From Nanobdellati archaeon (GTDB lineage: Archaea; Nanobdellota; Nanobdellia; Woesearchaeales; GCA-2686295), in contig JACNFY010000020.1 in assembly GCA_014384375.1 (NCBI GenBank), positions 65,222-129,221 on the forward strand: a stretch of DNA of 64,000 nucleotides, given 5' to 3'. This document shows positions 5,180 to 64,000 of this stretch, in pieces. The first letter of the stretch is position 1. Every line of letters begins with the position of its first letter. Below the pieces are notes generated by a model. It did not search any database. It was not told where the DNA came from and was given only the letters and a program-made list of their open reading frames with translations. The position numbers and the translations under genes were made by a program.

Positions 5180-5213
5180 TCTAACCCTTCTTTCTCAAAG
5201 AAAGATTAAGCTC
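5180..5213. repeat. right copy of exact 34-bp direct repeat (functional 3' end of aspS)
   Basis: Identical to 3849..3882. On the minus strand it encodes the aspS C-terminus ...ELNLSLRKKG plus stop. Confidence 0.9.
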
Positions 5214-20282: not shown

Positions 20283-20401
20283 TGGGGACGCCCGGATTCG
20301 AACCGGGATCTGCTGGTTTGGCCTGTTGTTAGTCATCGCCGAAGCTCATCGCTCCACAACATCTGGAGCCAGCCATTCTAGCCAGGTTATACTACGCCCC
20401 C
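20283..20401 (-). tRNA. tRNA-Trp (CCA) with a 45-nt intron at the canonical 37/38 position
   Basis: Acceptor GGGGGCG/CGTCCCC (one G-U), anticodon stem GCTGG/CCAGC, loop CTCCAG[intron 20318..20362]A, T-arm CCCGG-TTCGAAT-CCGGG. Confidence 0.8.
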
Positions 20402-36541: not shown

Positions 36542-36594
36542 GAAACCCCCCTTCGTGCTAGAAGTTATAATGAGACGTTTATATAATTTTTGCT

Positions 36595-40113: not shown

Positions 40114-40114
40114 A

Positions 40115-41582: not shown

Positions 41583-41613
41583 CTATTTATATACACAAAA
41601 GTTTCTAGGCGGA

Positions 41614-44937: not shown

Positions 44938-44988
44938 ATTAAATAGTTGGTTTTATTGTTTATAAATTTGTTGTTTGAATAAAAATAA

Positions 44989-45738: not shown

Positions 45739-45808
45739 AGTATTCAGACATAGTAATAAGTATTTAAAACTTTTGATTTAGTTACTACTTTATAGTAATT
45801 ATTTTTGT

Positions 45809-47381: not shown

Positions 47382-47411
47382 TTTTCTTATTATAATAAAA
47401 AAATAAAAAAA

Positions 47412-48323
47412 TTATTTGTTAGCTGCCTCTGCAGTGCTAACATCCATTCCAAGAATCTCTGCTGTATCCCTGATAACATCATAATCGCTATCAGATACTT
47501 TTTGATACTTGGAAATTCCTCCCCATCCATCAACTTGATGAATAGTTTGCTGATCCATGTTAAGTAAAGCATCCTGTATGGCTTTCTTAAGCTCTTCTGG
47601 TAGATTACCTCTAACAACAATCGGGGAACCAGGTATTGGCTCCGATTCATAGATAATGATGTTAGCTTCAGGGTCAATTTCTCCAGCATCTATCATTCTT
47701 TGGTATACATTATCACCAGTTGCCCCTGCATCCACTTTACCATTAGCAATAGCATACATGACCGCATTATGGGTTCCGGCATAGTAGCTTGTGCTGAAGT
47801 CATTGTCAGGATCTATACCATTCTCTATCAATATCTTTCTTGGTATCAAATTGCCTGATGTTGAAGCAGGATCTACAAATGCGAAGGTTTTCCCTTTTAA
47901 ATCTTCTAGGGTTTCAATACCAGAGTCAACATTCGTAACTATAACAGACTTATAGGTTGCGCTTCCTGTGCTTTCCTTAACACCATTAACAATCGCTTCT
48001 GCACCTGCAACATTTGATGCAATAACATATGAAAATGGTCCGAACCAAGCCATATCAATATGTTCTGATCTCATTGCTTCAATAGCAGCAGTGTAGTCGC
48101 TTGTAACCAATATCTCAACAGGTATACCTAACGCTGCAGATAGATATTCTTTCACAGGTTCATAAGCTCTTATCATTTCCTGCGAATCATCAGCAGGAAT
48201 AAGACCCATCTTCAAAACAGAGAATTCTTCTTCTCCATATGTCTTTGTTTCTTCTACTTCTGACTGACATCCAGCTAAAACAACTATGAACATCAGAAGA
48301 AGTCCTAAAATTATTTTCTTCAT
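47412..48323 (-). CDS. phnD: phosphonate/phosphite-family ABC substrate-binding lipoprotein
   Basis: 303 aa. Lipobox LAGC, and PhnD-type blocks (DMAWFGPFSYV, FVDPASTSGNLIP, YAGTHNAV). ATGA overlap with the upstream nucleotidyltransferase gene. Confidence 0.8.
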   Translation of the reverse strand: MKKIILGLLLMFIVVLAGCQSEVEETKTYGEEEFSVLKMGLIPADDSQEMIRAYEPVKEYLSAALGIPVEILVTSDYTAAIEAMRSEHIDMAWFGPFSYVIASNVAGAEAIVNGVKESTGSATYKSVIVTNVDSGIETLEDLKGKTFAFVDPASTSGNLIPRKILIENGIDPDNDFSTSYYAGTHNAVMYAIANGKVDAGATGDNVYQRMIDAGEIDPEANIIIYESEPIPGSPIVVRGNLPEELKKAIQDALLNMDQQTIHQVDGWGGISKYQKVSDSDYDVIRDTAEILGMDVSTAEAANK

Positions 48324-49123
48324 TCATCAACACCTCCAATATCAGATGGTATTTCTCCACCTATTTTTTTAAAGTCTTGAACAGTATCAAATTCTTTCCA
48401 CCCTTTCTGGATTAAAACACTATGAATCTCTTCTCCTTTATCGATCATCTCCTGGAAAATATCAGTTATGTATGATTTTTGCCACTCATTTGTATTCTGA
48501 TAGGTATCTATCATTTTCAAGATTGAATTTAATCTGTCAAAATGCTTTAGAAATATTCTTATTCCTTCAGGCGTAAATTTCCATAAACCAATGAATTCTC
48601 CTTGCTTATTCTTGGGAGTGTTGTTTGTGAATATATGTTTGCCAATTTTGAGCATCTTATTGTTTGTGTCTGTTATAACGTTCTCTGCTTCTTCAATAGG
48701 GTGATCTGTTCTTCCTTCATAGTATTCTTGCCAATCAGTATCCACTATAGCTGCTATTGTTTTTTTAGAATTGATAAGCTTCTTTATCACCCAATCTTCA
48801 TATAGTATATCAGAATAGCTTATTACAATATCCTCATTTTCTTTCTCTGCTTTTTCAAGATGTTTTCGCGCAAACATCAACGAGTGAAGTATATTGTTAT
48901 CTGTGTAAGCAGTATTTTCATAATAGGTTATATCTGGAAAATTAATCTTTTCTTTTGCGTAACCCCTTACAATTGCAATATCATCTACATCATTATTTTC
49001 GAATACTTGAAGAATGTTCTCCATTATAGACTTGTCGCCTATCTTTAGCATACACTTCGGTAGATTATTAGTTATCGGTCTTAACCTACTACATATCCCT
49101 GCAGCTATCACTATTCCTTTCAT
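48320..49123 (-). CDS. LicC/COG1213-like nucleotidyltransferase
   Basis: 267 aa. MKGIVIAAGICSRLRPITNNLPKCML, YYENTAYTDNNILHSL, ISYSDILY. ATGA overlaps at both ends. Confidence 0.65.
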   Translation of the reverse strand: MKGIVIAAGICSRLRPITNNLPKCMLKIGDKSIMENILQVFENNDVDDIAIVRGYAKEKINFPDITYYENTAYTDNNILHSLMFARKHLEKAEKENEDIVISYSDILYEDWVIKKLINSKKTIAAIVDTDWQEYYEGRTDHPIEEAENVITDTNNKMLKIGKHIFTNNTPKNKQGEFIGLWKFTPEGIRIFLKHFDRLNSILKMIDTYQNTNEWQKSYITDIFQEMIDKGEEIHSVLIQKGWKEFDTVQDFKKIGGEIPSDIGGVDE

Positions 49124-50400: not shown

Positions 50401-51561
50401 CTACTTTATATTTAGGTATTCAAAAACTCTTTTAGAAGAATTTCCATCATGATATTTGTTAAATTTATCTCTTATTTTCTTTACAAATTTTTTGTTAATT
50501 TCAAAATCCTCTTTTTTTAAACAATATATAATCTCTTCTTCAGTTCTACAAACAATCGGTTTAAATTCTTCTTGAACATCAAAATAAACCCCTCTTTTTT
50601 CTACATATCCCTCATAATCGTAAGCATACAATAATAGAGGTTTTAGCAAAAGAGAGAAATCAAAAATAACGCCTGAATAATCGGTTATTACTACATCAAT
50701 ACAAGGTAATAACTCTTGAATATCATCAACTTGCGGGGTGATGTTCTTTATGTTTGTCAACTGAGGATTTATCAGGGATGTTTCAAGTGCGTGTGCCTTC
50801 ATAATGAGCACATAATTCTTCTCTTCTAAAAGCTTGTTTAACATTATTAAACCATGCTCAGAAAAAGATGGTTTTTTTGCATAATCCCTATAAGTAGGAG
50901 CATAGAGGATTATCTTCTTATATTTCTTTAAATTAAGTTTTTCTCTCAGATTAACTGTACTAAGTTCATCATCAAAAAGAACGTCATTCCTAGGGTATCC
51001 TGTAATTATAGACTTGCATCTATAACTTCTTTCAGAAATTCTTTTCGAATATTCACAAGTATTTAGTATTAGTCTATATTTTGTATATTGTTTCTTAAGC
51101 AGCCACTTTAAAATTGGATTGGAATTCTTATAATAATAGTTATCAAACCCAATTTTTTTAATTACTGTACCGTGCCAAGTCATTATTATGTTAAAACGAC
51201 CGTTTAGATTACTTAAGTTAATAGTTGTTATGCAATCAGTTTCAACAAAAATGTATTTTGCTCTGAGAATCGACCACCAGTTTCTTAATCGAAAATCATG
51301 TTTCTTAACACCTTCTATGACTTTTTCCTTCTTTTCCTCATTGCTTATGAACATCATAACATCGTAATTCGGAAGATACTTCTTTGCATAGAGGTATAAA
51401 TACTTCGGATTCTCTCTCAAGCCTTTACCGGCTATTGTCTGAAACAAAAGAAGTTTTTCGTTCTTAGGTATTATATAACTTAATAGAAACATAACTACCT
51501 CAAAAACAAATAACTTGATTATTGATATAAGAGATATCGTATTTCGCGCCATCTTACACAA
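50401..51561 (-). CDS. TagB/TagF-family CDP-alcohol (glycerol/ribitol) phosphotransferase
   Basis: 386 aa. LYAPTYRDY, MKAHALE, and VITDYSGVIFDFSLLLKPLLLYAYDYEGYVEKRGVYFDV, typical of the Glyphos_transf family. Confidence 0.8.
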   Translation of the reverse strand: MCKMARNTISLISIIKLFVFEVVMFLLSYIIPKNEKLLLFQTIAGKGLRENPKYLYLYAKKYLPNYDVMMFISNEEKKEKVIEGVKKHDFRLRNWWSILRAKYIFVETDCITTINLSNLNGRFNIIMTWHGTVIKKIGFDNYYYKNSNPILKWLLKKQYTKYRLILNTCEYSKRISERSYRCKSIITGYPRNDVLFDDELSTVNLREKLNLKKYKKIILYAPTYRDYAKKPSFSEHGLIMLNKLLEEKNYVLIMKAHALETSLINPQLTNIKNITPQVDDIQELLPCIDVVITDYSGVIFDFSLLLKPLLLYAYDYEGYVEKRGVYFDVQEEFKPIVCRTEEEIIYCLKKEDFEINKKFVKKIRDKFNKYHDGNSSKRVFEYLNIK

Positions 51562-52620
51562 CTACATCTCAATTGTTTTTAATCCTACAAGCTTATAGTA
51601 AATGAACATAAAGAAATTTATCAAAGATAACAACAGCTTAAAAACAGGGTTTTTTACAAAAGTTTCACCATAAACCTTATAACTCAAGTATCTCAAAACT
51701 TTTCTGTCAGGTAGTTTTCTCTGTACTTGTACATTTTTTCTTTTCTTTCTCAAAGTGCCTATATGTGTAATGAGCCACCAATAACTTTTAACTCTTATAG
51801 GAATCTTCCTTGGTTCAAAAACATTTATCAGAATGGTTGAGAGAAGTACTGGAATAAGCAACCTAACAATGTTTTTTATTTCAAGAAATGTAAACACATT
51901 GATAAGTTTGTTTCTCTCACCCAAGTATATGAAGTACTTGTTTATTTTCTTGCTACTCTTTTTTGTTAGATTGTGATAATGGTTAACAATTGACTTAGTT
52001 GATAAAAGATTTCTATATCCTTTCATTTTTAGAATCCATCCAAGATAGAAATCCTCTGCATAGATAAAATAATCCTTGTCAAAAGGCATCTTAACTAAAT
52101 CTCTTCTATAGATAAACGAAACTCCTCTTATAGGAAAGAGCTCAACAAAATCAGTTTCTTTCAAAGGCTTATCATATTTATATCTTACAGGATAACCAAG
52201 TAATGAATGAGCCACCCCTGTCGTTTTGTAATTAACATCTTCCTTTACATTATTCCTTATTTCATTAGATGAGACAGAGCCAACATCATCAGAACTTTCA
52301 ATACCTCTCACAAGTTCTGTTAACCACTCTTTCTCAACTGTCGTATCGTTGTTCAATATAACAACATACTTTGATTTAGAATTTTCAACACCGACATTGT
52401 TTCCTCCAGCATAGCCTTCGTTATTCTTATTACAAAATATCTTTACCTTCTTGTTTTTACCAAACTCTTTCCTTAACATTTCGACTGAATTATCTGTACT
52501 CCCATTATCAACTATCACTATATTAAAATCTTTGAAGAGTTGCTTCAGAACAGATTTAACACAATCAACTGTAAAATCAGCTTGATTCCAATTTAGAATT
52601 ATCACAGAGACCTTTACCAT
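51562..52620 (-). CDS. GT2 glycosyltransferase with C-terminal hydrophobic region
   Basis: 352 aa. VSVIILNWNQADFT...VIVDNGSTDNS and NNDT (DxD-like). Confidence 0.75.
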   Translation of the reverse strand: MVKVSVIILNWNQADFTVDCVKSVLKQLFKDFNIVIVDNGSTDNSVEMLRKEFGKNKKVKIFCNKNNEGYAGGNNVGVENSKSKYVVILNNDTTVEKEWLTELVRGIESSDDVGSVSSNEIRNNVKEDVNYKTTGVAHSLLGYPVRYKYDKPLKETDFVELFPIRGVSFIYRRDLVKMPFDKDYFIYAEDFYLGWILKMKGYRNLLSTKSIVNHYHNLTKKSSKKINKYFIYLGERNKLINVFTFLEIKNIVRLLIPVLLSTILINVFEPRKIPIRVKSYWWLITHIGTLRKKRKNVQVQRKLPDRKVLRYLSYKVYGETFVKNPVFKLLLSLINFFMFIYYKLVGLKTIEM

Positions 52621-53618
52621 TATTTTTCAACCCAACTTGGAGGAAGATTCTTTGTAAGTTCGATGTTTTTGAATTTCTTGCTTTTCTTGCTTCCTATCTT
52701 TTTAGCCCAATCAGCCATTCGTTGAACTCCTTCTTCTAAAGAAAATTTTGTTTTATAACCAAGTACTTTTTTAACTTTGTTATGAGAAGAATATGCGTGT
52801 ACAACCTCATTCCTTGCAGGTAAATGCTTTGTTTTTTGGTTGGAACTCATTGCTTTCTTAACAGTTTCTGCTAAATAATTCACTGTATATGGTTTGTCTG
52901 CACCAATATTAAACACTTGATTATAAGCCTTCTTGATTTTTATAGACTTTGCTATTATAGGAGCAACATCTCCTATGTATGAGAAAGCTCTTGTCTGTTT
53001 CCCTTCACCAAAAATAGTTAATGGCTTGTTCTGCATTATCTGATTCATAAATATGCCAACAACATTCCTGTATTTATCTCCAAGATTTTGCTTCTCACCA
53101 TAAACGTTATGTGGTCTAAAAATGATATAGTTAAGCCCAAACATCTCATATGCTGACTTCAAGTCAAGCTCCACAGCATACTTTGAGATTCCATAAGGAT
53201 CTTCTGGTTGAGGAGTTGTCTCTTCTTTCATTGGAAGTTGGTTTGTTCCATAAACAGCAATTGAAGAAGTAAACACAAAGCACTTAACATTGTATCTAAT
53301 TGATTCATTGATAAGATTTATGCTTCCTAACAAATTGTTTCTGTAATTAAATATTCTGATAAAATGAGAAAGACCCTCTGCAGCATAAGCTCCTAAGTGA
53401 AAAACATAATCAAACTTATACTTCTTGAACAACTCTCTTATCAATTTAAAATTCAAAATGCTGCCTTTTACAAACACTGCTTTATTAGGAACATTTTCTT
53501 CAAAGCCTCCGCTAAGGTCATCAAGCACAACTGTTTTATAGCCTAATTTAATGAGTTCTTCTGCTAGATGAGCACCCATAAATCCTGCTCCACCAGTGAC
53601 TAGAACTGTTGATTTCAT
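52620..53618 (-). CDS. NAD-dependent nucleotide-sugar epimerase/dehydratase (extended SDR)
   Basis: 332 aa. VTGGAGFMGAH, TSSIAVYG, DPYGISK (YxxxK). TATA about 28 nt upstream. Confidence 0.7.
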   Translation of the reverse strand: MKSTVLVTGGAGFMGAHLAEELIKLGYKTVVLDDLSGGFEENVPNKAVFVKGSILNFKLIRELFKKYKFDYVFHLGAYAAEGLSHFIRIFNYRNNLLGSINLINESIRYNVKCFVFTSSIAVYGTNQLPMKEETTPQPEDPYGISKYAVELDLKSAYEMFGLNYIIFRPHNVYGEKQNLGDKYRNVVGIFMNQIMQNKPLTIFGEGKQTRAFSYIGDVAPIIAKSIKIKKAYNQVFNIGADKPYTVNYLAETVKKAMSSNQKTKHLPARNEVVHAYSSHNKVKKVLGYKTKFSLEEGVQRMADWAKKIGSKKSKKFKNIELTKNLPPSWVEK

Positions 53619-53659: not shown

Positions 53660-54697
53660 TTATGAAATTATCTTATAATAATACAGAAGTTTTCTAATCT
53701 CTTCTTTTGTAAGCTGGCGAATATTGTTAGAATCATACTCTTCATAAGCTCTTTTTGAACGATACTCAGAAATATATTGTGGTGTTATAATACTCTGGCG
53801 AAAAACAAACATGTCATCCAGTTCATCAATATGCTCTGCTTCTTCTTTTGTGATTAAGCACTCACTTATTTTTTCTCCAGGCCTGACACCTATCTTCTTT
53901 GTTTTGATATTTTGTGGTTTATAACCAAACTTAGGAGCTAGTTCTTCAATCATAACTTTTGCAAGGTCAATAATTCTTAAACTTTTCATCTTCAAAATAA
54001 ATATTTCATCACCTTCCATGATGGAAATAGCCTTCAATACCAAACCAACAGCCTCTGACATTGACATAAAGAATCTTGTCATCTTCTCAGAAGTTATGGT
54101 TACAGGACCTCCTTCCTTTATCTGTTTCTTGAAAATAGGAATAACTGAACCATTAGAATTTAAGACATTCCCAAACCTAACACAAGAGAACTTTGTCTTA
54201 TAATCGCCATACCCTGCTGTAGTGGTTAGTTTCTCACTCAATAATTTTGTTGCTCCCATAGTGTTTATAGGATTCACTGCTTTATCAGTACTTATAGACA
54301 AAAACTTTTCTACATTCTCCTTACGAGCAACATCAACTAAATTCTGGGTTCCTATGACATTTGTATTAACTGCTTCAAACGGATTATACTCGCAAAGAGG
54401 CACATGTTTCAAAGCAGCTGCATGAAACACTATATCTGCTCCTTTCATTGCTCTTTCAACACGATTCCTATCTCGGATATCGCCAACTAAATGTCTTGTT
54501 AATTTACTTAGGATATCCTGTCTCATATGAAAATGGGCTGATTCATTATTATCAAATATTCTCACTCTCTTTGGTTTGTATTTTAGAAGCTGTTTTACTA
54601 TTTCAGTACCAATTGAACCACAACCACCTGTAACTAGAATATCTTTTCCATGAAAAATTCTTTTTAATTTATTTTCTGAATCTTTTCTTCTTTTCAT
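53660..54697 (-). CDS. UDP-N-acetylglucosamine 4,6-dehydratase (PseB/LegB/CapD-type)
   Basis: Track start TTG 54715; ATG 54697 has a TATA about 28 nt upstream. VTGGCGSIGTE, FHAAALKHVPLCEYNP, STDKAVNPINTMGATK, IGVRPGEK parallel H. pylori FlaA1 (recalled from memory). Confidence 0.8.
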   Translation of the reverse strand: MKRRKDSENKLKRIFHGKDILVTGGCGSIGTEIVKQLLKYKPKRVRIFDNNESAHFHMRQDILSKLTRHLVGDIRDRNRVERAMKGADIVFHAAALKHVPLCEYNPFEAVNTNVIGTQNLVDVARKENVEKFLSISTDKAVNPINTMGATKLLSEKLTTTAGYGDYKTKFSCVRFGNVLNSNGSVIPIFKKQIKEGGPVTITSEKMTRFFMSMSEAVGLVLKAISIMEGDEIFILKMKSLRIIDLAKVMIEELAPKFGYKPQNIKTKKIGVRPGEKISECLITKEEAEHIDELDDMFVFRQSIITPQYISEYRSKRAYEEYDSNNIRQLTKEEIRKLLYYYKIIS

Positions 54698-54740
54698 TGA
54701 AAAAGCGGAAAACAAGTTATATTTAAATAACTATCGTGGA

Positions 54741-55841
54741 TTAGCAATAGAATTTTATTATTGAATTTTTCACGTTAATAACTTCTTTCCTTGTCATTCC
54801 AACAAACATAGGAAGAATTAATGTTGTTTTGCTTATCTTCTCAGCAACTGGAAAATCACCTTTCCTGTAACCAAAAGATTTTTTATAAAATGGTTGCAAG
54901 TGGATAGGCGGATAAAAATAAGCTTTACTTTGAATTCCTTCTTTTAACAAATGCTCTATTAACCTGTCTCTATCCTTCTCAGAAACTTGAATTGGAAACA
55001 CAAACCAAGTGTGTGTATTAAATTTATCAACAACAGGCGACTTTACTTGTGGTATTTCTGATAGTTCATTCATGTACATAGCAACCACTTTTCTTCTTTG
55101 ATTTATGAGAAAATCAATCTTTTTTAATTGTGAAATTCCCAAAGCTGCCTGCATATCAGTAATCCTGTAATTATATCCTAATTGCTCGTGTGTTAACCAC
55201 TGCATGCTTTCGCCTCTTCCTTGATTTCTCATACTTCTACAAGCTTCTGCTGTCTTTTTATTATTTGTAACAATCATACCACCTTCTCCAGTTGTTATCT
55301 GTTTATTTGGATAGAATGCAAATACAGCTGCGTCTCCAAATGTTCCTACTTTCTTATTTTTGTAAGTGGAGTTAAGAGATTCACAAGCATCTTCAATAAC
55401 TTTCAGATTGTGTTTCTTAGCTATGTTTATTATTTTACTCATATCACAGCTCTGGCCAAAGACATGAACTGGTAAAATAGCTTTTGTTCTTGAAGTTATT
55501 TTATCTTCAATTAAATTCGGATTTAGGTTAAACGTGTCTTCATCAACATCTGCAAAGATTGGTTTAGCCTTCTCAAACAACATACAGTTTGCAGAAGCAA
55601 CAAAAGAAAAAGGAGAAGTTATCACCTCATCACCTTCTTTAATTCCTAGAGATCTTACACAAAGGTGCAATCCTGAAGTTCCAGAGTTAACTGCAACTGC
55701 ATATTTAGTTCCAATTATCTTTGCAAAAAATCTTTCGAATTCATTGATTTTAGGACCTAAACTAAGTCTGCCAGATTTTAGAACTCTTTCAACTTCTTTA
55801 ATGTCTTTTTTGTCAATGTAAGGTTTTGCTAAAGGAATCAT
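54741..55841 (-). CDS. DegT/DnrJ/EryC1-family PLP-dependent sugar aminotransferase
   Basis: 366 aa. MIPLAKPYIDKKDIKEV...NSGTSGLHL and FYPNKQITTGEGG (the lysine region). Confidence 0.85.
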   Translation of the reverse strand: MIPLAKPYIDKKDIKEVERVLKSGRLSLGPKINEFERFFAKIIGTKYAVAVNSGTSGLHLCVRSLGIKEGDEVITSPFSFVASANCMLFEKAKPIFADVDEDTFNLNPNLIEDKITSRTKAILPVHVFGQSCDMSKIINIAKKHNLKVIEDACESLNSTYKNKKVGTFGDAAVFAFYPNKQITTGEGGMIVTNNKKTAEACRSMRNQGRGESMQWLTHEQLGYNYRITDMQAALGISQLKKIDFLINQRRKVVAMYMNELSEIPQVKSPVVDKFNTHTWFVFPIQVSEKDRDRLIEHLLKEGIQSKAYFYPPIHLQPFYKKSFGYRKGDFPVAEKISKTTLILPMFVGMTRKEVINVKNSIIKFYC

Positions 55842-56665
55842 TTCTTGCTCGCCTCAAACATGTTCTCAACTAACATAGCAATAGTCACAGGTCCAACTCC
55901 TCCTGGAACAGGAGTTATAAATGATGCTTTCTTGCTTACAGATTTGAAATCAATATCTCCATAAATCTTCTCGTCAATTTTCTTTATACCGATGTCAATA
56001 GCAACTACTCCTCTTTTCACATGTCTCCCTTTCACTAAGCCAGGATTTCCAGTAGCCGATATGATTATATCTGCTTTCTTTGTGTAATCATACAAGTTTT
56101 TTGTTTTTGTATGACAAACAGTAACTGTAGCGTTTCTTTTCATTAACATTAATGCTAATGGTCTTCCAACCAAGTCGCTATTATTTATTATACATACATT
56201 CTTGCCTGCAACCTTAATCTTGTATTCATAAAGTAGTTTTACTATTCCTTTTGGCGTACATGGTCCTGCTTCATCATCGTAGAGTATTTGACCTAAGGTA
56301 TTTGGATTCAAAAAGTCAACATCTTTTTCAGGAATAATCTCTCTCAACACTTTTGCTTTGTCAATTCCTCTCGGCAAGGGTAATTGAACTAGAATACCCT
56401 TAACTTTTCTAGATGAATTTAAGTGCCTAATCAAAGAAAGTAATTTTGAAGTTGTAGTTTTCTTAAAAAAATATTTCTCCATAATTATTCCTGCTCTTTG
56501 GCAAGCTTGTTCTTTTAGTCTGACATATAAGTGTGAAGCAGGATCCTTATCAACTAGTATGACTGCCAGAACTGGCTTAGCCTTTAGCTTTGAGATTTTT
56601 CTTTCATACTTATCAATGACTTTCTTTGCAAAAGCTCTGCCGTCTAATAACTTGTCAGTTTTCAT
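55838..56665 (-). CDS. folD: bifunctional 5,10-methylene-THF dehydrogenase / 5,10-methenyl-THF cyclohydrolase
   Basis: 275 aa. LLDGRAFAKKV...LAVILVDKDPASHLYVRLKEQ, VGRPLALML, TPVPGGVGPVT. The stop overlaps the aminotransferase start by 4 nt. Confidence 0.85.
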   Translation of the reverse strand: MKTDKLLDGRAFAKKVIDKYERKISKLKAKPVLAVILVDKDPASHLYVRLKEQACQRAGIIMEKYFFKKTTTSKLLSLIRHLNSSRKVKGILVQLPLPRGIDKAKVLREIIPEKDVDFLNPNTLGQILYDDEAGPCTPKGIVKLLYEYKIKVAGKNVCIINNSDLVGRPLALMLMKRNATVTVCHTKTKNLYDYTKKADIIISATGNPGLVKGRHVKRGVVAIDIGIKKIDEKIYGDIDFKSVSKKASFITPVPGGVGPVTIAMLVENMFEASKK

Positions 56666-56692
56666 CTAGAATGGCTACTGATGTTAGATTTA

Positions 56693-57250
56693 TTAATATT
56701 TGCATTTAATAATTCTTTTCTCTGTTATAATAATATCAACAGGAACATCATGTGAGTCAATAGGTAACCCTTTTAATATCTGAAATTCAAATGCTAAACC
56801 AATCTTTAACACATCATAATTCTCTTCTAGAAATTTATCATAATAACCTTTACCATAACCTATCCTGTGTCCTGATTCATCAAAAACTATGCCTGGAACA
56901 ATTACTATATCGGGATTAGTATCTTCCTGAGTAGGATTAATTGGTTCTAAAATTCCAAAAGTTCCTCTTTTTAATTTATTGAATCCTAAGAAGCGGGTTT
57001 GTTTTATCTCATCTCCGTCCACATATGGAATAAAAACTTTTTTACTTTCACTAATTTCTTTTATCAAAACGTGTGTTTGCACTTCGTTATCAATGGAAAC
57101 ATAACAATGAACTTTTCTTGAATCAACGAATTCTTCAAGGTCGAATAATATTTTCTTTATTCTATTACTTTTACTAGCCACTAAATCCTTACTCAAACTA
57201 TCTCTTTTTACCAATATTTCCTTTCTAAGAGTTTGCTTTGATTGTTTCAT
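56693..57250 (-). CDS. 5-formyltetrahydrofolate cyclo-ligase
   Basis: 185 aa. [12 protein letters not shown]..., ILEP, VPGIVFDESGHRIGYGKGYYDKFL, typical of MTHFS. Confidence 0.8.
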   Translation of the reverse strand: MKQSKQTLRKEILVKRDSLSKDLVASKSNRIKKILFDLEEFVDSRKVHCYVSIDNEVQTHVLIKEISESKKVFIPYVDGDEIKQTRFLGFNKLKRGTFGILEPINPTQEDTNPDIVIVPGIVFDESGHRIGYGKGYYDKFLEENYDVLKIGLAFEFQILKGLPIDSHDVPVDIIITEKRIIKCKY

Positions 57251-57923
57251 ATTCTTCTAGAATAATTTTTGATCCGCTTATCTCAATATATGGCAAATCT
57301 CTTACACCTGGAAAAAATGTTGCTCTTACTCTTAGCTTTATTTCTTCATCATCCATGTCTGGTGTAATTCTGCACAGTTCCTGAAATTCTTTTCTAGTAT
57401 AAGGTTTACGAACCCATTGCTCATTTGATTTTGGTAAATTCCGTCTTTTCAAAATAAGTTCGAATACTTCTTGAAAAAGTTTTACAAGATAATCCATAGT
57501 TCTGTCCTTTAGCTTCGCAACATTATCGTCTTCATACATTGGAAATGTTAAAACTTTGACTATCTTTCCTGAGTCAACTCTTGAAATCATGTGATGACAA
57601 GTCACACCATACTCTCTATCCTTGTTGTAGATTGCAAAATTATAGCAACCTATCCCTGGATATTTTGGCGGAGCAGGATGAAAATTCAAAGAGATTTTTG
57701 CTTTTTGCAACAATTCTTCTGGTAAAATCCAAGATGATAAAAAAGAAAGTATATAATCTCCTTTCCATTCTATCTTTGGGAAAGTATCTCCAAATTCTCC
57801 TTCAAAAATTAATAACTCATCTTTTTCTGATAGATTAGTTTTCACATAATCTTGCATCTCTCTGCATATATCTGATGTCTTTGTTAGAAGTAATATTTTC
57901 ATTTTTAGTAAATTACCTTTCAA
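57225..57923 (-). CDS. formyltransferase-fold protein (sugar N-formyltransferase candidate 1)
   Basis: 232 aa. [39 protein letters not shown] fits the Formyl_trans_N catalytic core (N.H...D). No Fmt-type C-terminal tRNA-binding domain. Confidence 0.7.
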
Positions 57924-58318
57924 TTTAACTTCTTTATAACTTTTGCAGGGGCTCCTACTGCGACAACGTTGTCAGGTATGTCTTTAGTTACAAGGCTAAG
58001 TGCTCCAATTAAAGAGTTTTCTCCAACAGTTACTCCAGGCATTACAACTGAATGACTGCCTATTCTACAGTTCTTCTTCAAAACCACTTTTCCTTGCTTG
58101 TTATCAATTGTAGAAACAGAATATATAGAACAATGAGAACCAATCTGAACATTTTCTTCTATTATAATTCCTTTTTTCGCATTAATATATGTGAATGCTC
58201 CAATGTCAGTATTTCTTCCTAATTTTAAGCCTTCTTTGTTCTGAACCATCCAATTCCATTTTGTTAATTCTCCTTCTTTAACTTTTGGAAATTTCCAATC
58301 TTTAAAGCGTTCTTCCAT
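57920..58318 (-). CDS. hexapeptide-repeat (LbH) acyltransferase
   Basis: 132 aa. IGSHCSIY..., [35 protein letters not shown]. Confidence 0.7.
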
Positions 58319-58328
58319 TTTTTATCCC

Positions 58329-59492
58329 TCAGTATGTTATCTTCTTTTGTAACAATTTTTTGTTAAGTCTTATCTTTGCTAATCTCTTAGCAATTTTTTT
58401 GCCTGCCATACCGTTGCCATAAGGACTTCTACACAGCTTCATTTTTCTCTGAAAATTTTTTGACAACGCTTTTTTTATAGCCTTCAATACCTCTTTTGTC
58501 TTGTGATCAACATCCATAACATTATTTGCCCTCTCTCTATCATCTTGTCTAATGCCTATATTGACAACAGGCAATTTGAATGATGCTGATTCCATTATCC
58601 CACTACTAGAATTACCAACCATGACCTTAGCGTATTTCATAAGACTCAAGTAATCTTTGTGAGGCAGACTTGCATATGCTTTTATTATTCGTTTTTTATC
58701 AAATTCTTTTAGTTTTTTTATGATTTTTCTACCGCCTGCATCTGAGTTAGGATATATCGCTATTGTCTGCATTCCTACTTGTTTAATTGCATTGAGTGTT
58801 TCTTCTATTTGTCTTTGAGCATCATCCGGTTGGGTAGATACTGAGTGTTGCACTAGAAGTATATAGCCTTTTTCAGTATCTATTTCAAATTTTTTTTCAA
58901 CTTCTTTCCTTGACAAAAGCTTAACGTTTAGAATTGTGTCTAAACCAGGCGCTCCAACAACAAATATGTTTTTAGGTTCCTCTCCCAACTTTCTAATTCT
59001 CTCTGCGCTTTTCTTTGTTACAGGAAAATGTATGTGTGCAAACTTTGTTATTGAGTGCCTTACAGATTCATCTAATCCTGCTCTTGCACTGTCTCCTCCA
59101 TGTATGTGGGCTATCGGTATGTTCATGTAAGCTGCAGCAATAACACCAGCTAAGGATTCTATTCTGTCCCCAAGCACAAGGAGAACATCTGGTTTTATTT
59201 CTTTCAATGCATTGCTAATACCAATTATCCCTTTACCTATTGCCTGTGCCATTGAGAATCCTGTATCTTGCTCAGGGTTCATAACTGTTTTCTTATCAAC
59301 CTTGAATTTATCTTTTTTTATATCGTTGATAGTATAACCAAATTCTTTTGATAAATGCATCCCCGTTACTATGAGCTTCAACTCTAGTTTTGAATGCTTT
59401 TTTACAGCAGCCATCACAGGCTTAAGCAAACCATACTCTGCTCGCGTACCTGTTAAGACACAGATTTTCCTTTTTTTAGTTCTGCTCGCCAT
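58329..59492 (-). CDS. neuC: hydrolysing UDP-sugar 2-epimerase (NeuC/LegG type)
   Basis: 387 aa. KICVLTGTRAEYGLLKPVM, LGDRIE, HIHGGD, typical of NeuC-type epimerases. Confidence 0.8.
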   Translation of the reverse strand: MASRTKKRKICVLTGTRAEYGLLKPVMAAVKKHSKLELKLIVTGMHLSKEFGYTINDIKKDKFKVDKKTVMNPEQDTGFSMAQAIGKGIIGISNALKEIKPDVLLVLGDRIESLAGVIAAAYMNIPIAHIHGGDSARAGLDESVRHSITKFAHIHFPVTKKSAERIRKLGEEPKNIFVVGAPGLDTILNVKLLSRKEVEKKFEIDTEKGYILLVQHSVSTQPDDAQRQIEETLNAIKQVGMQTIAIYPNSDAGGRKIIKKLKEFDKKRIIKAYASLPHKDYLSLMKYAKVMVGNSSSGIMESASFKLPVVNIGIRQDDRERANNVMDVDHKTKEVLKAIKKALSKNFQRKMKLCRSPYGNGMAGKKIAKRLAKIRLNKKLLQKKITY

Positions 59493-60223
59493 ATTATTAA
59501 TTTCTCCTCTCCTAATCTTATATATGCTCCTTTATAAGGCTTTGACAGGGCTTTAATTTTCCTATATATTTGCTCTGCAGATTCCTTCTCTAAATTTATC
59601 TCATTATCTTTTAGTGATGGTTTTTGAAAAACTGTTGCTTTTGAATCATCTTGTGAAATCATTGGTGCTTTTCCTTGAACAAGCAATGGCAAATATTTTC
59701 TTATTAGTTTTCTTCCAACATTAATTACTTTTTCATAAACATCAACTGCATAGTCTGTTTCAGCTATATCAAACTTTTCCTGACCTATAATAGGTCCATC
59801 ATCCAACCCTTCAGTTAAATGAAACATTGTTAAACCTGATTTTTTGAAACCATACAAAATTGAGTTTATTATTGGCGCAGGTCCTCTTCCAACAGGCAGT
59901 AAAGTTGGGTGAAAACCCACAAACATTTTTGGAATTCCTAACATTTCCTTGTCTATTATTTGCCTCCAACCACACATCACAACAATATCAGGAGATAATT
60001 TTTTTAACAACTCTTTTTCATTGTTTATTCTTTCAACCTCAAAAACCTTTATTCCAAACTCATACCATTTTTTATTATCAAGACCATCATACATAACAGT
60101 TTTTGAATCCCTGCTGAGAGTTATTATAGAATCTATATTAACCCCTTTAATCTTGGTAGATTCTTTTAACATTTCATAGCCAAGTTTATTGGCAGATAGC
60201 CAAACTATTTTCATTTTTACCAA
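59453..60223 (-). CDS. formyltransferase (sugar N-formyltransferase candidate 2)
   Basis: 256 aa. VGFHPTLLPVGRGPAPIINSIL..GLTMFHLTEGLDDGPIIGQ resembles ArnA-N/WbkC/VioF-type enzymes. Alternative start MKIVWLS at 60214. Confidence 0.75.
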   Translation of the reverse strand: MVKMKIVWLSANKLGYEMLKESTKIKGVNIDSIITLSRDSKTVMYDGLDNKKWYEFGIKVFEVERINNEKELLKKLSPDIVVMCGWRQIIDKEMLGIPKMFVGFHPTLLPVGRGPAPIINSILYGFKKSGLTMFHLTEGLDDGPIIGQEKFDIAETDYAVDVYEKVINVGRKLIRKYLPLLVQGKAPMISQDDSKATVFQKPSLKDNEINLEKESAEQIYRKIKALSKPYKGAYIRLGEEKLIIWRAELKKGKSVS

Positions 60224-60861
60224 AAACTACGCACTATCTGAAATGCTTCTGCATACTCAGTGCATATTTCAATCCCCCTCTTATTAGCCCATATCTTAAG
60301 TCCTTTTTTACTTCTAGGATGAGAATATTTCTTAACTTCAGATTTATATTGAGAAAAAGCTTCAACTTTCTTATCTATATAAGGAGTTATGTCAACATAT
60401 AAATTAGGTATGAATGCTTTGTTATTCCATTCTGTTGAAGAAGGGGTTTCAAAACAGAGCACTTTTGTTTTCTTTCTTACAGGCCTTGTGGCAACCATGA
60501 CCGCTTGGAAGATTATACCATGATCCTTATTCACATCTCCTTCAAAATGAGTGTATATTACATCTGGAGAAATATCTTCTATGACCTCTCCAATAATTTT
60601 GTTAAATTCTCCGTGAGGAATAGTGTTAAGCTTGACTGTTGGTAAATCGCAGAAAACTCTTTTTTTGACACAGAGTATATTATCAACTTTTTTAGCTTCT
60701 TTTAATTTAGTTACTTTATACTTCTTCGACCATTCTGGCTCATATGATGTTGTAACAATACAAATATAAACTTCATCACCATTTTTCTTGTGTTTAAGGA
60801 TTGTACCTCCAACTCCCAAGACTTCATCATCCGGATGTGCTGCTATTACTAATATTCTCAT
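60217..60861 (-). CDS. PIG-L/LmbE-family N-acetyl-sugar deacetylase
   Basis: 214 aa. ILVIAAHPDDEVLGVGGT and HxDH-type metal site (NKDH). Confidence 0.8.
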   Translation of the reverse strand: MRILVIAAHPDDEVLGVGGTILKHKKNGDEVYICIVTTSYEPEWSKKYKVTKLKEAKKVDNILCVKKRVFCDLPTVKLNTIPHGEFNKIIGEVIEDISPDVIYTHFEGDVNKDHGIIFQAVMVATRPVRKKTKVLCFETPSSTEWNNKAFIPNLYVDITPYIDKKVEAFSQYKSEVKKYSHPRSKKGLKIWANKRGIEICTEYAEAFQIVRSFW

Positions 60862-61907
60862 TTTAAGTCCTCAAAGGAAATTAGCTCATCTTTATTAAAG
60901 TTCCTTAAGGCTATTTTCCCTATAACCTCATCTATTCTCTCAGGCATAATGCCTATGCCTGGTCTCTTTATTATAATATCTTCTCCTTTTATCACATTTC
61001 CTTTCTTTATGTCATTCTTTGCAACTAAACTTTTTCTTATGGTTTTACTCATTGAAAACTCTGAGGGTGCAAGCTCTTTCTTTTCAGAGCCTCTTATCTC
61101 CTCAATAAGTCGTATCTGTCTAACCATTTCTTTTAGTTCATTTGGTTCAAGAGAGGCCTTATGATCAGGTCCTTCCATTGTTCTATCAAGAGTGAAATGT
61201 TTCTCAATAACCACTGCACCCATAGCCGCAGCAACTAATGGAACAAGCAAACCTTCTGTGTGGTCAGAGTAACCTACCAAACAACTCAGTTTTTTTCTCA
61301 TAGTTTCCATTGCTCTAAGATTAACCTCTTCAAAAGGAGTAGGATAATTTGTTGTACAGTGTAGAAATACAAAGTTATCGTTTCCTGCATTCCTTATGGC
61401 TTCAACAGCTTTTTTCACTTCATCCATTGTAGACATACCAGTAGAGATTATCATCGGCTTATTTTTTTTCGCCATCTTAACTAAATACGGAATATTATTT
61501 AGTTCTCCAGAACCCGCCTTAAAAATTTCTACACCCAATTCATCAAGAAAATCAATTGCGTCCTCATCAAAAGGAGTTGACATAAATATTAATCCCTTCT
61601 TCTCAGAATAATTCTTTAGAGGTTTATGAAATTCCTCCTTTAATTCAAGCCTTTTCAACATATCAAACTGTGTTTCTTCCTTACCTATATTCTTTGTTTG
61701 GTACTCTGCTTGTTTTGCATCTCTTGTTGCAAGTTTTTCAGCTTTGAAAGTTTGAAATTTTACTGCATCCACTCTTGCTTCTGCAGCTGCATCTATAAGC
61801 CTTCTTGCAATTTTTATATCACCACTGTGATTAACGCCTGCTTCAGCTATAATAAAACAAGCGTGTTTCTCTCCTATGATTTTGTTTCCTATTTTTATTT
61901 CAGTCAT
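60858..61907 (-). CDS. neuB: nonulosonic (sialic/legionaminic) acid synthase, NeuB family
   Basis: 349 aa. CFIIAEAGVNHSGDIKIARRLIDAAAEARVDAVKFQTF, YSDHT, and a C-terminal SAF domain. Confidence 0.85.
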   Translation of the reverse strand: MTEIKIGNKIIGEKHACFIIAEAGVNHSGDIKIARRLIDAAAEARVDAVKFQTFKAEKLATRDAKQAEYQTKNIGKEETQFDMLKRLELKEEFHKPLKNYSEKKGLIFMSTPFDEDAIDFLDELGVEIFKAGSGELNNIPYLVKMAKKNKPMIISTGMSTMDEVKKAVEAIRNAGNDNFVFLHCTTNYPTPFEEVNLRAMETMRKKLSCLVGYSDHTEGLLVPLVAAAMGAVVIEKHFTLDRTMEGPDHKASLEPNELKEMVRQIRLIEEIRGSEKKELAPSEFSMSKTIRKSLVAKNDIKKGNVIKGEDIIIKRPGIGIMPERIDEVIGKIALRNFNKDELISFEDLK

Positions 61908-62266
61908 TTTTTTACAACAATATATTTTATGCCTTCTTTAGTGAACTCAAGTTTATGAACTTGCTTTGCAGGGATATGAATAATATCGCCTTTGCTAATT
62001 GTTATTTTTTTCTTGCGGTCAATAACCAATTCACCCTCTCCATCAAATACATAATAGACATCATCTTCATCTTCATGTACTTCTTCCTCTCCTTTAAAAC
62101 CCGCAGGCAGATTAATGAAAAACATTTTAGGTTCTGCCTTAGCAGCAGATAGTTCTCCATCTTTAACGAGTCTGACAAAAATGCGTTTTATCATCTCTGA
62201 ATCAAATATTGATGAGTTTGTTGACTCTATTGAGGTATTAAATTCCTCAAGCCAGTTTTCTACCAT
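61904..62266 (-). CDS. cupin-fold protein
   Basis: 120 aa. HEDEDDVYYVFDGEG...GDIIHIPAKQVHKL (cupin motifs 1 and 2). Confidence 0.55.
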   Translation of the reverse strand: MVENWLEEFNTSIESTNSSIFDSEMIKRIFVRLVKDGELSAAKAEPKMFFINLPAGFKGEEEVHEDEDDVYYVFDGEGELVIDRKKKITISKGDIIHIPAKQVHKLEFTKEGIKYIVVKK

Positions 62267-63084
62267 ACTGTAAAACCTCCATCAACAACTAAATTATGTC
62301 CTGTAACATATGATGATGCGTCAGATGCTAGGAATACTAAAGCGCCATTGACCTCATCAACATTAGCCTTCCTTCCAAGCGGTACCTTGTCTGAATAGTT
62401 CTTCACAAATTTCTTATCTTCTTTTGGATTGTATATTCCTCCTGGTGATATGCAGTTAACACGTATATTGTACTCTCCATAGTAAGCTGCTAGATATCTT
62501 GTAAAGTTAATAAGCCCTCCTTTCGCAGCATTATACACTCCATGCGAATATATCCTTTTTATCTTAGGAGAGTTCTTGACATAAACTTTATGCAGATTTG
62601 TTCCTTCATATATTCTCTGATCATTTCCTACAAGACCATAATGAGATGCTATGTTTATTATGGAACCGCTTTTCTGTTTTTTCATCACAGGTACAAAAGT
62701 CTGTATTGTTAGGAAAGGAATACTCAAGTTTCCAAGCATACCTTTATCCCATCCTTCTAAAGAGACATCCTCAAATGGAAGATAGAAATCATCTCCTTTT
62801 GCTGTTGTTGAGTTTACAAGTATGTCTACTCTTTTAGAGTCCTTAACAATGTAATCCTTCAGCTTAACTAACTCTTTCTTACTTGTTGCATCAACTTTTA
62901 CTAGCTGAAAATTCACATTATATTTCTTTCTAAGCTTTTTTGTTTCTGAAGATTCTTTTACATTCACATCACAACTGTATACTTTTGTTCCATATTCGAG
63001 CAATGCTTTACAGAACTGCTTACCTAATTGTCCATTACCTCCAAACACAATCGCAACCTTATTTTTTAGATTAAATAATTCCAT
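62260..63084 (-). CDS. short-chain dehydrogenase/reductase (classical SDR)
   Basis: 274 aa. FGGNGQLGK, NIAS, YNAAK (YxxxK). Confidence 0.7.
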   Translation of the reverse strand: MELFNLKNKVAIVFGGNGQLGKQFCKALLEYGTKVYSCDVNVKESSETKKLRKKYNVNFQLVKVDATSKKELVKLKDYIVKDSKRVDILVNSTTAKGDDFYLPFEDVSLEGWDKGMLGNLSIPFLTIQTFVPVMKKQKSGSIINIASHYGLVGNDQRIYEGTNLHKVYVKNSPKIKRIYSHGVYNAAKGGLINFTRYLAAYYGEYNIRVNCISPGGIYNPKEDKKFVKNYSDKVPLGRKANVDEVNGALVFLASDASSYVTGHNLVVDGGFTVW

Positions 63085-63093
63085 TTTTGCACC

Positions 63094-64000
63094 TCAACTT
63101 ATTTTAATCCATTTCTTTGACTTTGTTGATTCCTCTGCAGCTTCAATTATTCTCATGACTTCTACTCCTTCCTCAAAGCTGCATTGAATTGTTTTTCTTC
63201 TTTTTATGAAGTCAACAAATCCTTTCATCTCATCAAGATAATTTTTCTCCCAATCGTTTACTCCACCTTTAAGCAATACTTTTTCCTCGCTTTCAAGAGT
63301 TGTGAAACTCACTTTTGCTTCAGAGAAATCGTATTCTATTTTTCCTTTTGAACCTATTATTACTCCTGTCCTAGATAGTTTTGGATTCAGATAATCAAGC
63401 TCGATTTGGCCTGTTACATTGTCTTCTGATTTGAATAAGATAATTGCGTGGTCATCAACATCAATTTTCAAATCTGATATTTTTTCTACTACACCACACA
63501 CTTCATTTATCCTACCAAACAAGTAATTGGCTAAGTCAATTTCATGTGAAAGTGTTCTTATAACTCCTCCTCCTAAACTCTTTTTAGAGTAATACTCTTT
63601 CCTGTAATCAGCGTATGGGTGCCATGTAGGGAGATATTGACCACAATACAAATTTGCTTTATAGATTTTCCCAATCTTTCCTTCATCAATAAACTTCTTA
63701 ACAGTCTTGATTATGATATTATATCTTAGGTTATAGCCTACCATGACTTTAGAAACATCCAAACCTTTAAGCTCATCTGTTTGCTCCAAACTGTTGGAAA
63801 CAGGTTTCTCTACAAATACAGTAAGTTCCTTTTCTAAAGTTTTTTTCAATGTTGAAATGTGAAGACTTGTGGGGTTAGATATGATTACTCCATCAAGCTT
63901 TAATGAGAAAAACTCTTTCTCATCAAAAACCTCTTTTATGGAATTCAACTCTTCAGGAAGTTCCTTCATGGTGCCTTTCTTTGTCCTCAAAGCATAAACT
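63094..64000 (-). CDS. Gfo/Idh/MocA-family oxidoreductase (5' end beyond the window)
   Basis: DGVIISNPTSLH...VFVEKP motif. The reading frame stays open to position 64000 and the Rossmann N-terminus is missing, so the gene is partial. Confidence 0.65.
   Translation of the reverse strand, partial: VYALRTKKGTMKELPEELNSIKEVFDEKEFFSLKLDGVIISNPTSLHISTLKKTLEKELTVFVEKPVSNSLEQTDELKGLDVSKVMVGYNLRYNIIIKTVKKFIDEGKIGKIYKANLYCGQYLPTWHPYADYRKEYYSKKSLGGGVIRTLSHEIDLANYLFGRINEVCGVVEKISDLKIDVDDHAIILFKSEDNVTGQIELDYLNPKLSRTGVIIGSKGKIEYDFSEAKVSFTTLESEEKVLLKGGVNDWEKNYLDEMKGFVDFIKRRKTIQCSFEEGVEVMRIIEAAEESTKSKKWIKIS

Follow-up and report, generated by a model that had tools for sequence, protein, structure and literature searches.

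We analysed 64,000 nucleotides of contig JACNFY010000020.1 (GCA_014384375.1, positions 65,222 to 129,221 of the forward strand) from a Nanobdellati archaeon, hereafter the window, and in particular the gene cluster at its positions 53660-64000. This cluster is an unbroken minus-strand run of 13 open reading frames (ORFs), which in our judgement is likely to be the core of a DPANN-archaeal operon for a CMP-activated, N-formylated nonulosonate of the legionaminic acid type. The sugar would belong to a surface glycan, and the folate enzymes FolD and MTHFS would supply the formyl donor.

Gene content of the operon

Gene families were assigned by profile searches against Pfam and NCBIfam, with the cut-off of each model as the threshold. 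From position 64000 downwards, the genes are as follows.

63094-64000, minus strand: 3' part of a Gfo/Idh/MocA oxidoreductase gene (Pfam GFO_IDH_MocA_C3, E=5e-21)
62260-63084, minus strand: short-chain dehydrogenase, SDR (Pfam adh_short_C2, E=5e-49)
61904-62266, minus strand: cupin, 120 aa (Pfam Cupin_2, E=6e-12)
60858-61907, minus strand: NeuB/LegI-type nonulosonate synthase with SAF domain (TIGR03569, 473.7 bits, cut-off 399.65)
60217-60861, minus strand: PIG-L/LmbE-family de-N-acetylase (Pfam PIG-L PF02585, 85.5 bits, cut-off 28.2)
59453-60214 (maximal ORF to 60223), minus strand: second formyltransferase-like protein, FT2 (Pfam Formyl_trans_N and partial Formyl_trans_C)
58329-59492, minus strand: NeuC/LegG-type hydrolysing UDP-sugar 2-epimerase (Epimerase_2; TIGR03568, 459.8 bits, cut-off 235.9)
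57920-58318, minus strand: short left-handed beta-helix (LbH) acyltransferase, 132 aa (Pfam Hexapep)
57225-57902 (maximal ORF to 57923), minus strand: first formyltransferase, FT1 (Pfam Formyl_trans_N)
56693-57250, minus strand: MTHFS, 5-formyl-tetrahydrofolate (5-formyl-THF) cyclo-ligase (5-FTHF_cyc-lig; TIGR02727, 161.5 bits, cut-off 84.9)
55838-56665, minus strand: FolD, methylene-THF dehydrogenase/methenyl-THF cyclohydrolase (Pfam THF_DHG_CYH N and C parts, 200.5 and 113.4 bits)
54741-55841, minus strand: DegT pyridoxal phosphate-dependent aminotransferase, C4 position (Pfam DegT, E=6e-130, 434 bits)
53660-54697 (maximal ORF to 54715), minus strand: UDP-GlcNAc 4,6-dehydratase of the Polysacc_synt_2 type (PF02719, E=6e-107, 357.7 bits)

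The E-values of the 13 assignments span 1e-12 to 1e-130, and the assignments are therefore not due to chance. NeuB, NeuC and MTHFS all score above the curated NCBIfam cut-offs. The ORF coordinates and both profile collections bore out the 13-gene run and the gene labels of an initial annotation made from the sequence alone, and its junction range, from -40 nt (overlap of FT2 and NeuC) to +27 nt (gap between MTHFS and FolD), was exactly reproduced from the maximal ORFs. In the public gene calls, three proteins begin at ATGs farther downstream and have lengths of 253 aa (FT2), 225 aa (FT1) and 345 aa (dehydratase). The same operon is present in several independent metagenome assemblies.

Several family assignments can be specified further. 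The best PDB match of NeuB is the N. meningitidis NeuB (223 bits). The deacetylase carries an AAHPDDE motif at residues 7-13 of its translation and has BshB/LmbE-type deacetylases as its closest solved relatives. LbH corresponds to the C-terminal part only of the NeuD/PglD family (TIGR03570, 71.8 bits, under cut-off), and it is 57-74% identical to its counterparts in most related cassettes. FolD remains under the cut-offs of all NCBIfam FolD equivalog models (best 310.7 against 437). For the SDR at 62260-63084, the best NCBIfam model is PRK09186 (178 bits, under cut-off) and the best PDB match 6uh2 (140 bits). The cupin gene lies between the SDR and NeuB genes and overlaps each neighbour by a few bases; in a tblastn search of the related loci no counterpart was matched.

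The initial annotation had reported that the window lacks a NeuA synthetase and had proposed to look for one beyond position 64000. A profile search of the cluster region at 49.7-64 kb agreed in finding no cytidylyltransferase, the rest of the window being scanned only partly, and extension of the contig then located such a gene, at a distance of one gene past the window end. Contig JADHVY010000003.1 (GCA_016783785.1; locus L001 in our numbering of related loci), found by exact-protein match, reaches 7.3 kb past the window end, and its proteins carry the NCBI label Nanoarchaeota/DPANN. It completes the Gfo/Idh/MocA gene (GFO), which encodes 326 aa and extends to approximately window position 64074 (L001 6314-7294). 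Directly upstream of GFO and outside the window lies a gene for a 251-aa cytidylyltransferase of the CTP_transf_3 family. This NeuA candidate matched only KdsB-type cytidylyltransferase models, all under cut-off.

A cassette shared by archaea and bacteria

A scan based on an FT2 alignment, with one genome per GTDB species, yielded 59 loci, 33 of which have an FT2 homologue with an identity of 48% or more. Archaeal carriers among these 33 are Woesearchaeota, Nanoarchaeia, Iainarchaeum, Hadarchaeota, Methanosarcinales and Methanomicrobiales, and the bacterial carriers comprise several phyla of the Candidate Phyla Radiation (CPR), Margulisiibacteriota, WOR-3, Omnitrophota, and metagenome-assembled genomes (MAGs) of Desulfotomaculaceae and of an alphaproteobacterium. 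Searching with the window proteins by tblastn, we found the block NeuB-PIG-L-FT2-NeuC-LbH-DegT-dehydratase again, at 45-74% identity, in about 30 species of archaea and bacteria.

The NeuB-to-LbH half of the window operon is nearest to locus L008, and the half from FT1 to the SDR directly downstream of the dehydratase is nearest to locus L066 (68-81% identity), as if two modules had merged in this operon. L066, on a Woesearchaeota-type contig, has the order NeuA::NeuB, NeuC, FT1, MTHFS, serine hydroxymethyltransferase (SHMT), FolD, DegT, dehydratase. Fusions of NeuA to NeuB occur in L010 (7634-9361, 575 aa) as well as in L066 (7109-8869, 586 aa).

The initial annotation had regarded the combination of two formyltransferases with a PIG-L deacetylase as unusual. 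This did not hold up, as the combination is also found in cultured Halorussus and Dissulfurispira. On a Halorussus caseinilyticus plasmid, the DegT and dehydratase genes are followed at some distance by NeuA, SDR, GFO, a canonical 240-aa formyltransferase, a 314-aa formyltransferase without the catalytic Asn, NeuB, PIG-L and NeuC. Dissulfurispira likewise combines an Asn-less long formyltransferase and PIG-L with a canonical short formyltransferase.

Two formyltransferase-fold proteins and a deacetylase

FT1 aligns to ArnA with the N-x-H motif and the Asp kept, and residues N73, H75 and D110 are invariant in all 120 of its best homologues. Its AlphaFold2 model (pLDDT 94.0) is nearest to enzymes that formylate the 4-amino group of nucleotide sugars, namely Rv3404c, the Francisella WbtJ, VioF and WbkC, with a template modelling (TM) score of about 0.75. 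The homologues of FT1 are located in nonulosonate clusters; in Dissulfurispira thermophila and in a Chthoniobacter MAG they adjoin NeuC and NeuB. L066 has neither LbH nor PIG-L nor FT2, which leaves FT1 as the sole N-acyltransferase of that locus; therefore only FT1 can acylate the 4-amino group there. We propose that FT1 is a canonical sugar N-formyltransferase and the 4-N (future N7) enzyme of the pathway. The fold and the N-x-H...D triad are shared with PseJ, the structurally solved formyltransferase of a pseudaminic pathway in Anoxybacillus kamchatkensis (6ci2/6ci4; TM about 0.75), and with the Holden-type sugar N-formyltransferases, by which we mean VioF, WbtJ, Rv3404c, WbkC, WlaRD and ArnA-N. 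As with PseJ, the substrate of FT1 would be a UDP-4-amino-4,6-dideoxy-HexNAc, formylated at its 4-amino group en route to a nonulosonate. In sequence FT1 is remote from the solved formyltransferases, with at most 36 bits against any of them and 29 against PseJ.

FT2 is a different protein. It aligns over its full length to Fmt and ArnA, with GFHPTLLP in place of N-x-H-(G/A)-S-L-L-P, and its AlphaFold2 model (pLDDT 93.7) has the ArnA formyltransferase domain (2bln) as the best match, at a TM score of 0.89. The initial annotation had staked its assignment on an intact Asn/His/Asp triad in the formyltransferases. In FT2 the triad reads Gly100-x-His102...Asp138, with Gly instead of the catalytic Asn and with His and Asp unchanged. 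Nearly all of the best 120 homologues (56-70% identity) have G, A or S at the Asn position, and the 30%-identical counterparts from Dissulfurispira and Halorussus have Gly there too; no variation is seen at His102, Asp138 and the SLLP-type folate loop. Given this loss, the formyltransferase activity of FT2 is therefore something that we infer. The earlier view that both Fmt-fold enzymes lack the C-domain stands for FT1 and fails for FT2, which keeps about half of it (positions 5-51 of the 100 of Pfam Formyl_trans_C) within an ArnA-N/Fmt-like fold. FT2 thus shares its fold with the Holden-type enzymes and departs from them by the Gly at the catalytic Asn position and by the PIG-L gene beside it.

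The partnership with PIG-L is deeply conserved. In nearly all of the 59 FT2-related loci, down to 30% identity, PIG-L is encoded in the same locus as FT2 and usually adjacent to it. From these patterns we propose that PIG-L strips the 2-N-acetyl group (future N5) and that FT2 would be an N5 formyltransferase acting together with it.

It is also conceivable, in our view unlikely, that FT1 is the only formylating enzyme. FT2 and PIG-L would then attach another acyl group, bind or hydrolyse 10-formyl-THF, or form a scaffold for the deacetylase, and N5 would be left free or otherwise acylated. The family-wide change of Asn to Gly, Ala or Ser would be explained by such a role, and so would the pairs of FT2-like and PIG-L genes that occur in Planctomycetes without nearby nonulosonate genes; in Kuenenia, moreover, nonulosonates bear one free amine beside one formyl group, hence a deacetylase product can stay unacylated. 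Against this account stand the invariance of His102, Asp138 and the folate loop, the match to the ArnA-N fold, and the fact that Halorubrum, with a formyltransferase of about 317 aa that may or may not be of the Asn-less type, makes 5-N-formyl-legionaminic acid. Furthermore, cassettes that have FT2 and no FT1 (L008, L009, L010, L017, L018 and L035) hold MTHFS and FolD, with or without SHMT, which would be puzzling if FT2 did not use a folate-bound one-carbon (C1) unit.

In loci L040-L063 (Planctomycetota and other bacteria), FT2-like proteins of 30-40% identity and PIG-L stay paired although both NeuB and NeuC are missing. Other amino sugars may therefore be further targets of the acetyl-to-formyl (or other acyl) swap.

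Legionaminic or pseudaminic acid

A dehydratase with a C4 aminotransferase, NeuC, NeuB and NeuA are all present at the locus and together form a gene set of the legionaminic type (the route via UDP-N,N'-diacetylbacillosamine, UDP-diNAcBac). The NCBIfam models for PseG, PseH and PseF found no match among the proteins of the cluster or of the upstream extension. NeuB scores above TIGR03569, a model that pools LegI and NeuB, and under the PseI model (311.8 bits, cut-off 340.25). We argue for the legionaminic branch because NeuC and a NeuB-type synthase are encoded and no PseG or PseH model matched.

The first two enzymes point the other way. The dehydratase obtains 314.5 bits with the PseB model and 69.7 with LegB (under cut-off), and the aminotransferase 354.7 bits with PseC and 302.3 with LegC, both under cut-off. 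Moreover, the best PDB match of the dehydratase is Pen of the Bacillus thuringiensis pseudaminic pathway (6bwc, 283 bits), followed by PseB (231 bits) and PglF (195 bits), and the extended SDR encoded directly downstream has Pal (6bwl) as a PDB match of second rank. A pseudaminic-type or other L-series nonulosonate, made with a PF02719 dehydratase and a downstream SDR resembling Pen/Pal or PseB, would account for these scores. We consider it quite improbable: the PseB and PseC scores are all under the model cut-offs, PseG, PseH and PseF are unmatched, NeuC is above its cut-off, and NeuB passes the NeuB_NnaB model and fails that of PseI. The dehydratase motifs are STDKA and MGATK, and the T-D-K triad kept in the former is absent from Pen. 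In addition, the UDP-linked legionaminic acid route of Legionella, said to have been described by Glaze et al. in 2008, reportedly employs PglF-type PF02719 dehydratases as well, which counts against a pseudaminic product. Thus the legionaminic logic of the initial annotation survives in NeuC and NeuB, which pass their cut-offs, and in the lack of a PseG match, with the higher scores of the dehydratase and aminotransferase on PseB and PseC, all under cut-off, as a reservation about the configuration of the product. We also tried an SYK versus SMK motif as a discriminator of the two pathways and rejected it: the window dehydratase reads MGATK, and Met at this place is shared by CapE and FnlA, which are inverting enzymes.

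Folate genes within the cluster

To quantify the association of the folate genes with the cassette, the loci of the FT2 scan were assigned to taxa by their record titles. In-cluster folate genes were counted as follows.

Named DPANN: 8 of 11 loci
Unclassified archaeal MAGs: 1 of 2 loci
Other archaea: 0 of 6 loci
Bacteria: 1 of 14 loci

The named DPANN (8/11) differ from the other classified loci (1/20) with a Fisher p=1.7e-4, and the window's own contig and L066 likewise carry folate genes in the cluster. Bacteria (13 of the 14 loci) and methanogens with the same cassette have no folate genes in it. The folate genes accompany FT2-only cassettes as well as the FT1-only cluster and are usually inserted between NeuC/LbH and DegT. 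SHMT is encoded in L008, L013, L017, L032, L038 and L066, and a FolC-like Mur ligase together with a Vut_1 vitamin transporter in L008 and L032. Two translational fusions were confirmed with Pfam: MTHFS::FolD in a woesearchaeotal locus (517 aa, L035 12076-13629) and LbH::SHMT::FolD in an alphaproteobacterial MAG (882 aa, L038 12011-14659).

Because in-cluster folate genes recur and such fusions exist, there is strong comparative evidence that the formyltransferases would use a one-carbon unit that is bound to folate and generated in situ. The functional tie between folate genes and formyltransferases that the initial annotation had postulated is thereby strengthened. FolD and MTHFS often serve as housekeeping genes, the genome was covered here by the window and the 7.3 kb beyond it, and most carriers of the cassette (bacteria and methanogens) have no folate genes in it, yet we rejected as highly improbable the view that the two came to lie in the operon by chance and serve a genome-wide folate network, given the DPANN enrichment, the two fusions, the tight junctions in the window (-26 to +27 nt) and an insertion site, between NeuC/LbH/FT1 and DegT, that is shared by at least 10 independent DPANN loci whose other content differs.

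The source of the one-carbon unit is a separate matter. SHMT forms methylene-THF, with 5-formyl-THF as a by-product that inhibits SHMT; MTHFS recycles the 5-formyl-THF and FolD gives 10-formyl-THF. The operon had been regarded as a self-contained folinate-salvage unit. This is not the best reading, as in relatives SHMT lies between MTHFS and FolD; therefore serine is the likely one-carbon source there, with MTHFS as a repair or entry step. Serine via SHMT and FolD is more likely to be the usual carbon source than pure folinate salvage. A search for SHMT, FolC and Vut across the window and the adjoining 7 kb found none of them. The window operon has lost SHMT or never had it, and folinate uptake is a possible source in this organism.

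Position of the GFO and SDR genes

The order NeuA-GFO-SDR is that of ElaB-ElaA-ElaC, which make CMP-Leg5,7Ac2 and invert C8 in Acinetobacter baumannii KL49 and Vibrio vulnificus (PMC13656337). This cassette and PtmB/PtmF/PtmA of Campylobacter are the closest known systems, with the same three families in the order cytidylyltransferase, Gfo/Idh/MocA, SDR. By analogy of position, GFO (ElaA-like) is a candidate C8 oxidase of the CMP-nonulosonate and the SDR at 62260-63084 (PtmA/ElaC-like) a candidate 8-keto reductase. The likeness is one of gene order: unlike in the Ela cassette, a cupin gene follows the SDR here, and the substrate would bear a formyl group and not two acetyl groups. A PDB sequence search with the SDR and GFO returned no ElaA or ElaC entry, only generic SDR and inositol-dehydrogenase relatives.

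Proposed pathway

The following steps are derived from family assignment and synteny. First, the PF02719 dehydratase and DegT would convert UDP-GlcNAc to UDP-4-amino-4,6-dideoxy-GlcNAc. The 4-amino group (future N7) would then be acetylated by LbH or formylated by FT1. Subsequently PIG-L would remove the 2-N-acetyl group (future N5) and FT2 would put a formyl group on the same nitrogen. NeuC would hydrolyse and 2-epimerise the UDP-sugar, and NeuB would condense the product with phosphoenolpyruvate. Finally, the NeuA-type synthetase would make the CMP-sugar, and the GFO/SDR pair may invert C8. The predicted products are 5-N-formyl-7-N-acetyl-legionaminic acid (Leg5Fo7Ac) and/or the di-N-formyl form (Leg5Fo7Fo), or their 8-epimers. 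FolD and MTHFS would keep the N10-formyl-THF pool charged for both transferases: FolD would oxidise 5,10-methylene-THF and open 5,10-methenyl-THF, and MTHFS would convert 5-formyl-THF back to the methenyl form.

Such an archaeon is not known to make formyl-Met-tRNA and probably has little de novo purine synthesis. The folate genes would lie in the sugar operon because such an archaeon probably has no other need for 10-formyl-THF.

Besides the PseB, PseC and Pen matches given above, several observations weigh against this pathway. FT2 is without the catalytic Asn that all characterised N10-formyl-THF transferases have, a single amine would be the target of both LbH and FT1, and the cupin is without an assigned role. 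In the window and the 7 kb beyond, we found neither SHMT nor Fhs nor any other gene that would provide methylene-THF or activate formate. Furthermore, the premise that 10-formyl-THF has no other use in such an organism comes from general DPANN biology and not from this genome.

As a wider and more tentative proposal, which we consider possible although rather doubtful, DPANN folate enzymes (FolD and MTHFS, often SHMT, sometimes FolC and a Vut-type vitamin transporter) may be kept or acquired mainly as accessories of surface-sugar synthesis, with formyl supply for a legionaminic-acid-like sugar as their main task, and PIG-L/FT2 may be a mechanistically distinct, Asn-less acetyl-to-formyl swap module that spreads horizontally among archaea and bacteria.

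Surroundings of the operon

Downstream of the dehydratase gene the same-direction run goes on to position 50401 with three further genes.

52620-53618, minus strand: GalE/LegB-like extended SDR, directly downstream (Pfam Epimerase; TIGR04180 LegB, 124 bits, under cut-off)
51562-52620, minus strand: GT2 glycosyltransferase (Pfam)
50401-51561, minus strand: CDP-glycerol-type phosphotransferase, Glyphos_transf (Pfam)

The extended SDR, which has GalE (4zrm) as a further PDB match, is syntenic and 81% identical in L066; it is a candidate 4-epimerase or second LegB-type dehydratase. The junctions between the SDR, GT2 and phosphotransferase genes are -1 and 0 nt, and the transcription unit of the operon probably ends with the latter two.

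Upstream of NeuA, L001 1799-5565 holds a second, divergent NeuB-like gene, whose 317-aa product has no SAF domain and reaches 127 bits with the NeuB model, as well as genes for a radical-SAM/SPASM protein and for a 526-aa BFO_1060-type glycosyltransferase. Together they may be a further tailoring or transfer module.

Many glycosyltransferases are encoded in the same 64 kb, and an STT3/AglB oligosaccharyltransferase of 974 aa lies at 33674-36598. It is immediately followed by a NodU/CmcH-type carbamoyltransferase (both within 33674-38322, minus strand); a carbamoyltransferase flanks the L066 cluster too, which hints at a carbamoylated glycan. A heptose-type set occupies 39001-43032 on the plus strand and comprises a GT9 heptosyltransferase, an HldD-like epimerase, a GmhA-like SIS protein and an HldE-like PfkB-cytidylyltransferase fusion. 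Also in the glycan island, at 44242-49123 (minus strand), two small NTP-transferase genes flank a phosphonate-type ABC transporter that consists of binding protein, ATPase and permease.

Farther away, two paralogous class II tRNA synthetases (Asp/Asn/Lys type; 1518-2813 and 5181-6599, both minus strand) are encoded less than 5 kb apart. An intron-containing tRNA is located at 20283-20401 (minus strand), a 119-nt Rfam match over the full model, and led us to discard an ARAGORN result of zero tRNAs in the window. A partial second tRNA match with Rfam is at 14994-15049 (minus strand). The intron-containing tRNA, the AglB gene and the NCBI protein labels all agree with an archaeal source of the window.

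Relation to known systems and significance

N-formyl legionaminic acid and clusters with a deacetylase and a formyltransferase are already known. In Halorubrum sp. PV6, 5-N-formyl-legionaminic acid caps the N-glycans of the host and of its virus, and the leg cluster has the order LegC-LegB-LegF-LegG-formyltransferase-NeuD...LegI, with a predicted formyltransferase that is co-transcribed and adjoins a NeuD homologue (PMC6137143). That paper makes no mention of gene 1052, of a deacetylase or of a second formyltransferase. The locus described here is likewise archaeal and near N-glycosylation genes including AglB, and has the dehydratase, aminotransferase, NeuC, NeuB, NeuA, LbH and formyltransferase in common with it. 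In contrast, FolD, MTHFS and SHMT are neither reported nor seen in the haloarchaeal clusters, and the window proteins are 30-47% identical to those of Halorussus.

In Ca. Kuenenia stuttgartiensis, a deacetylase and a formyltransferase are encoded between leg genes, CMP-nonulosonates carry one formyl group and one free amine, and it was shown that the CMP-nonulosonate pool is the level at which both formylation and deacetylation occur (bioRxiv 10.64898/2026.04.20.719630). The system differs from the window in being bacterial, in keeping the free amine, and in that one formyltransferase and no folate genes are mentioned. The deacetylase role suggested earlier for the window thus fits published chemistry, namely the Halorubrum 5-N-formyl sugar (PMC6137143) and the Kuenenia cluster (bioRxiv 10.64898/2026.04.20.719630).

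The folate genes belong to the same families as the bacterial SHMT-FolD-MTHFS trio. Unlike that trio, they are located in, and sometimes fused to, an archaeal surface-sugar pathway and not linked to translation initiation or purines, and the window is without SHMT. A literature search that combined DPANN or Woesearchaeota with folate, SHMT and legionaminic acid gave no report of this arrangement, the query 'folD' being swamped by 'fold'. In the literature searched we likewise met no report of the folate module embedded in DPANN clusters, of the folate fusions, or of an enzyme family partnered with PIG-L that has lost the catalytic Asn throughout.

Sialic-acid-like sugars cap surface glycans of archaea and bacteria and are recognition sites for viruses and partner cells, and DPANN archaea, which are ultrasmall and depend on a host, meet that host at the cell surface. 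The widely transferred seven-gene cassette, very probably for N5-formyl legionaminic acid, occurs in DPANN, methanogens, CPR and other bacteria, and it holds an uncharacterised Fmt-like family that is without the supposedly essential Asn and is partnered with PIG-L. The predictions can be tested in the cultured carriers Halorussus caseinilyticus and Dissulfurispira thermophila or with recombinant enzymes. In DPANN the cassette comes with its own cofactor-charging genes, as a vitamin-dependent one-carbon pathway recruited into a glycan operon, and this gives a concrete reason for genome-reduced archaea to retain 'bacterial' folate enzymes. If the folate genes are indeed sugar accessories, DPANN metabolic reconstructions that read them as one-carbon or central metabolism would misassign them.

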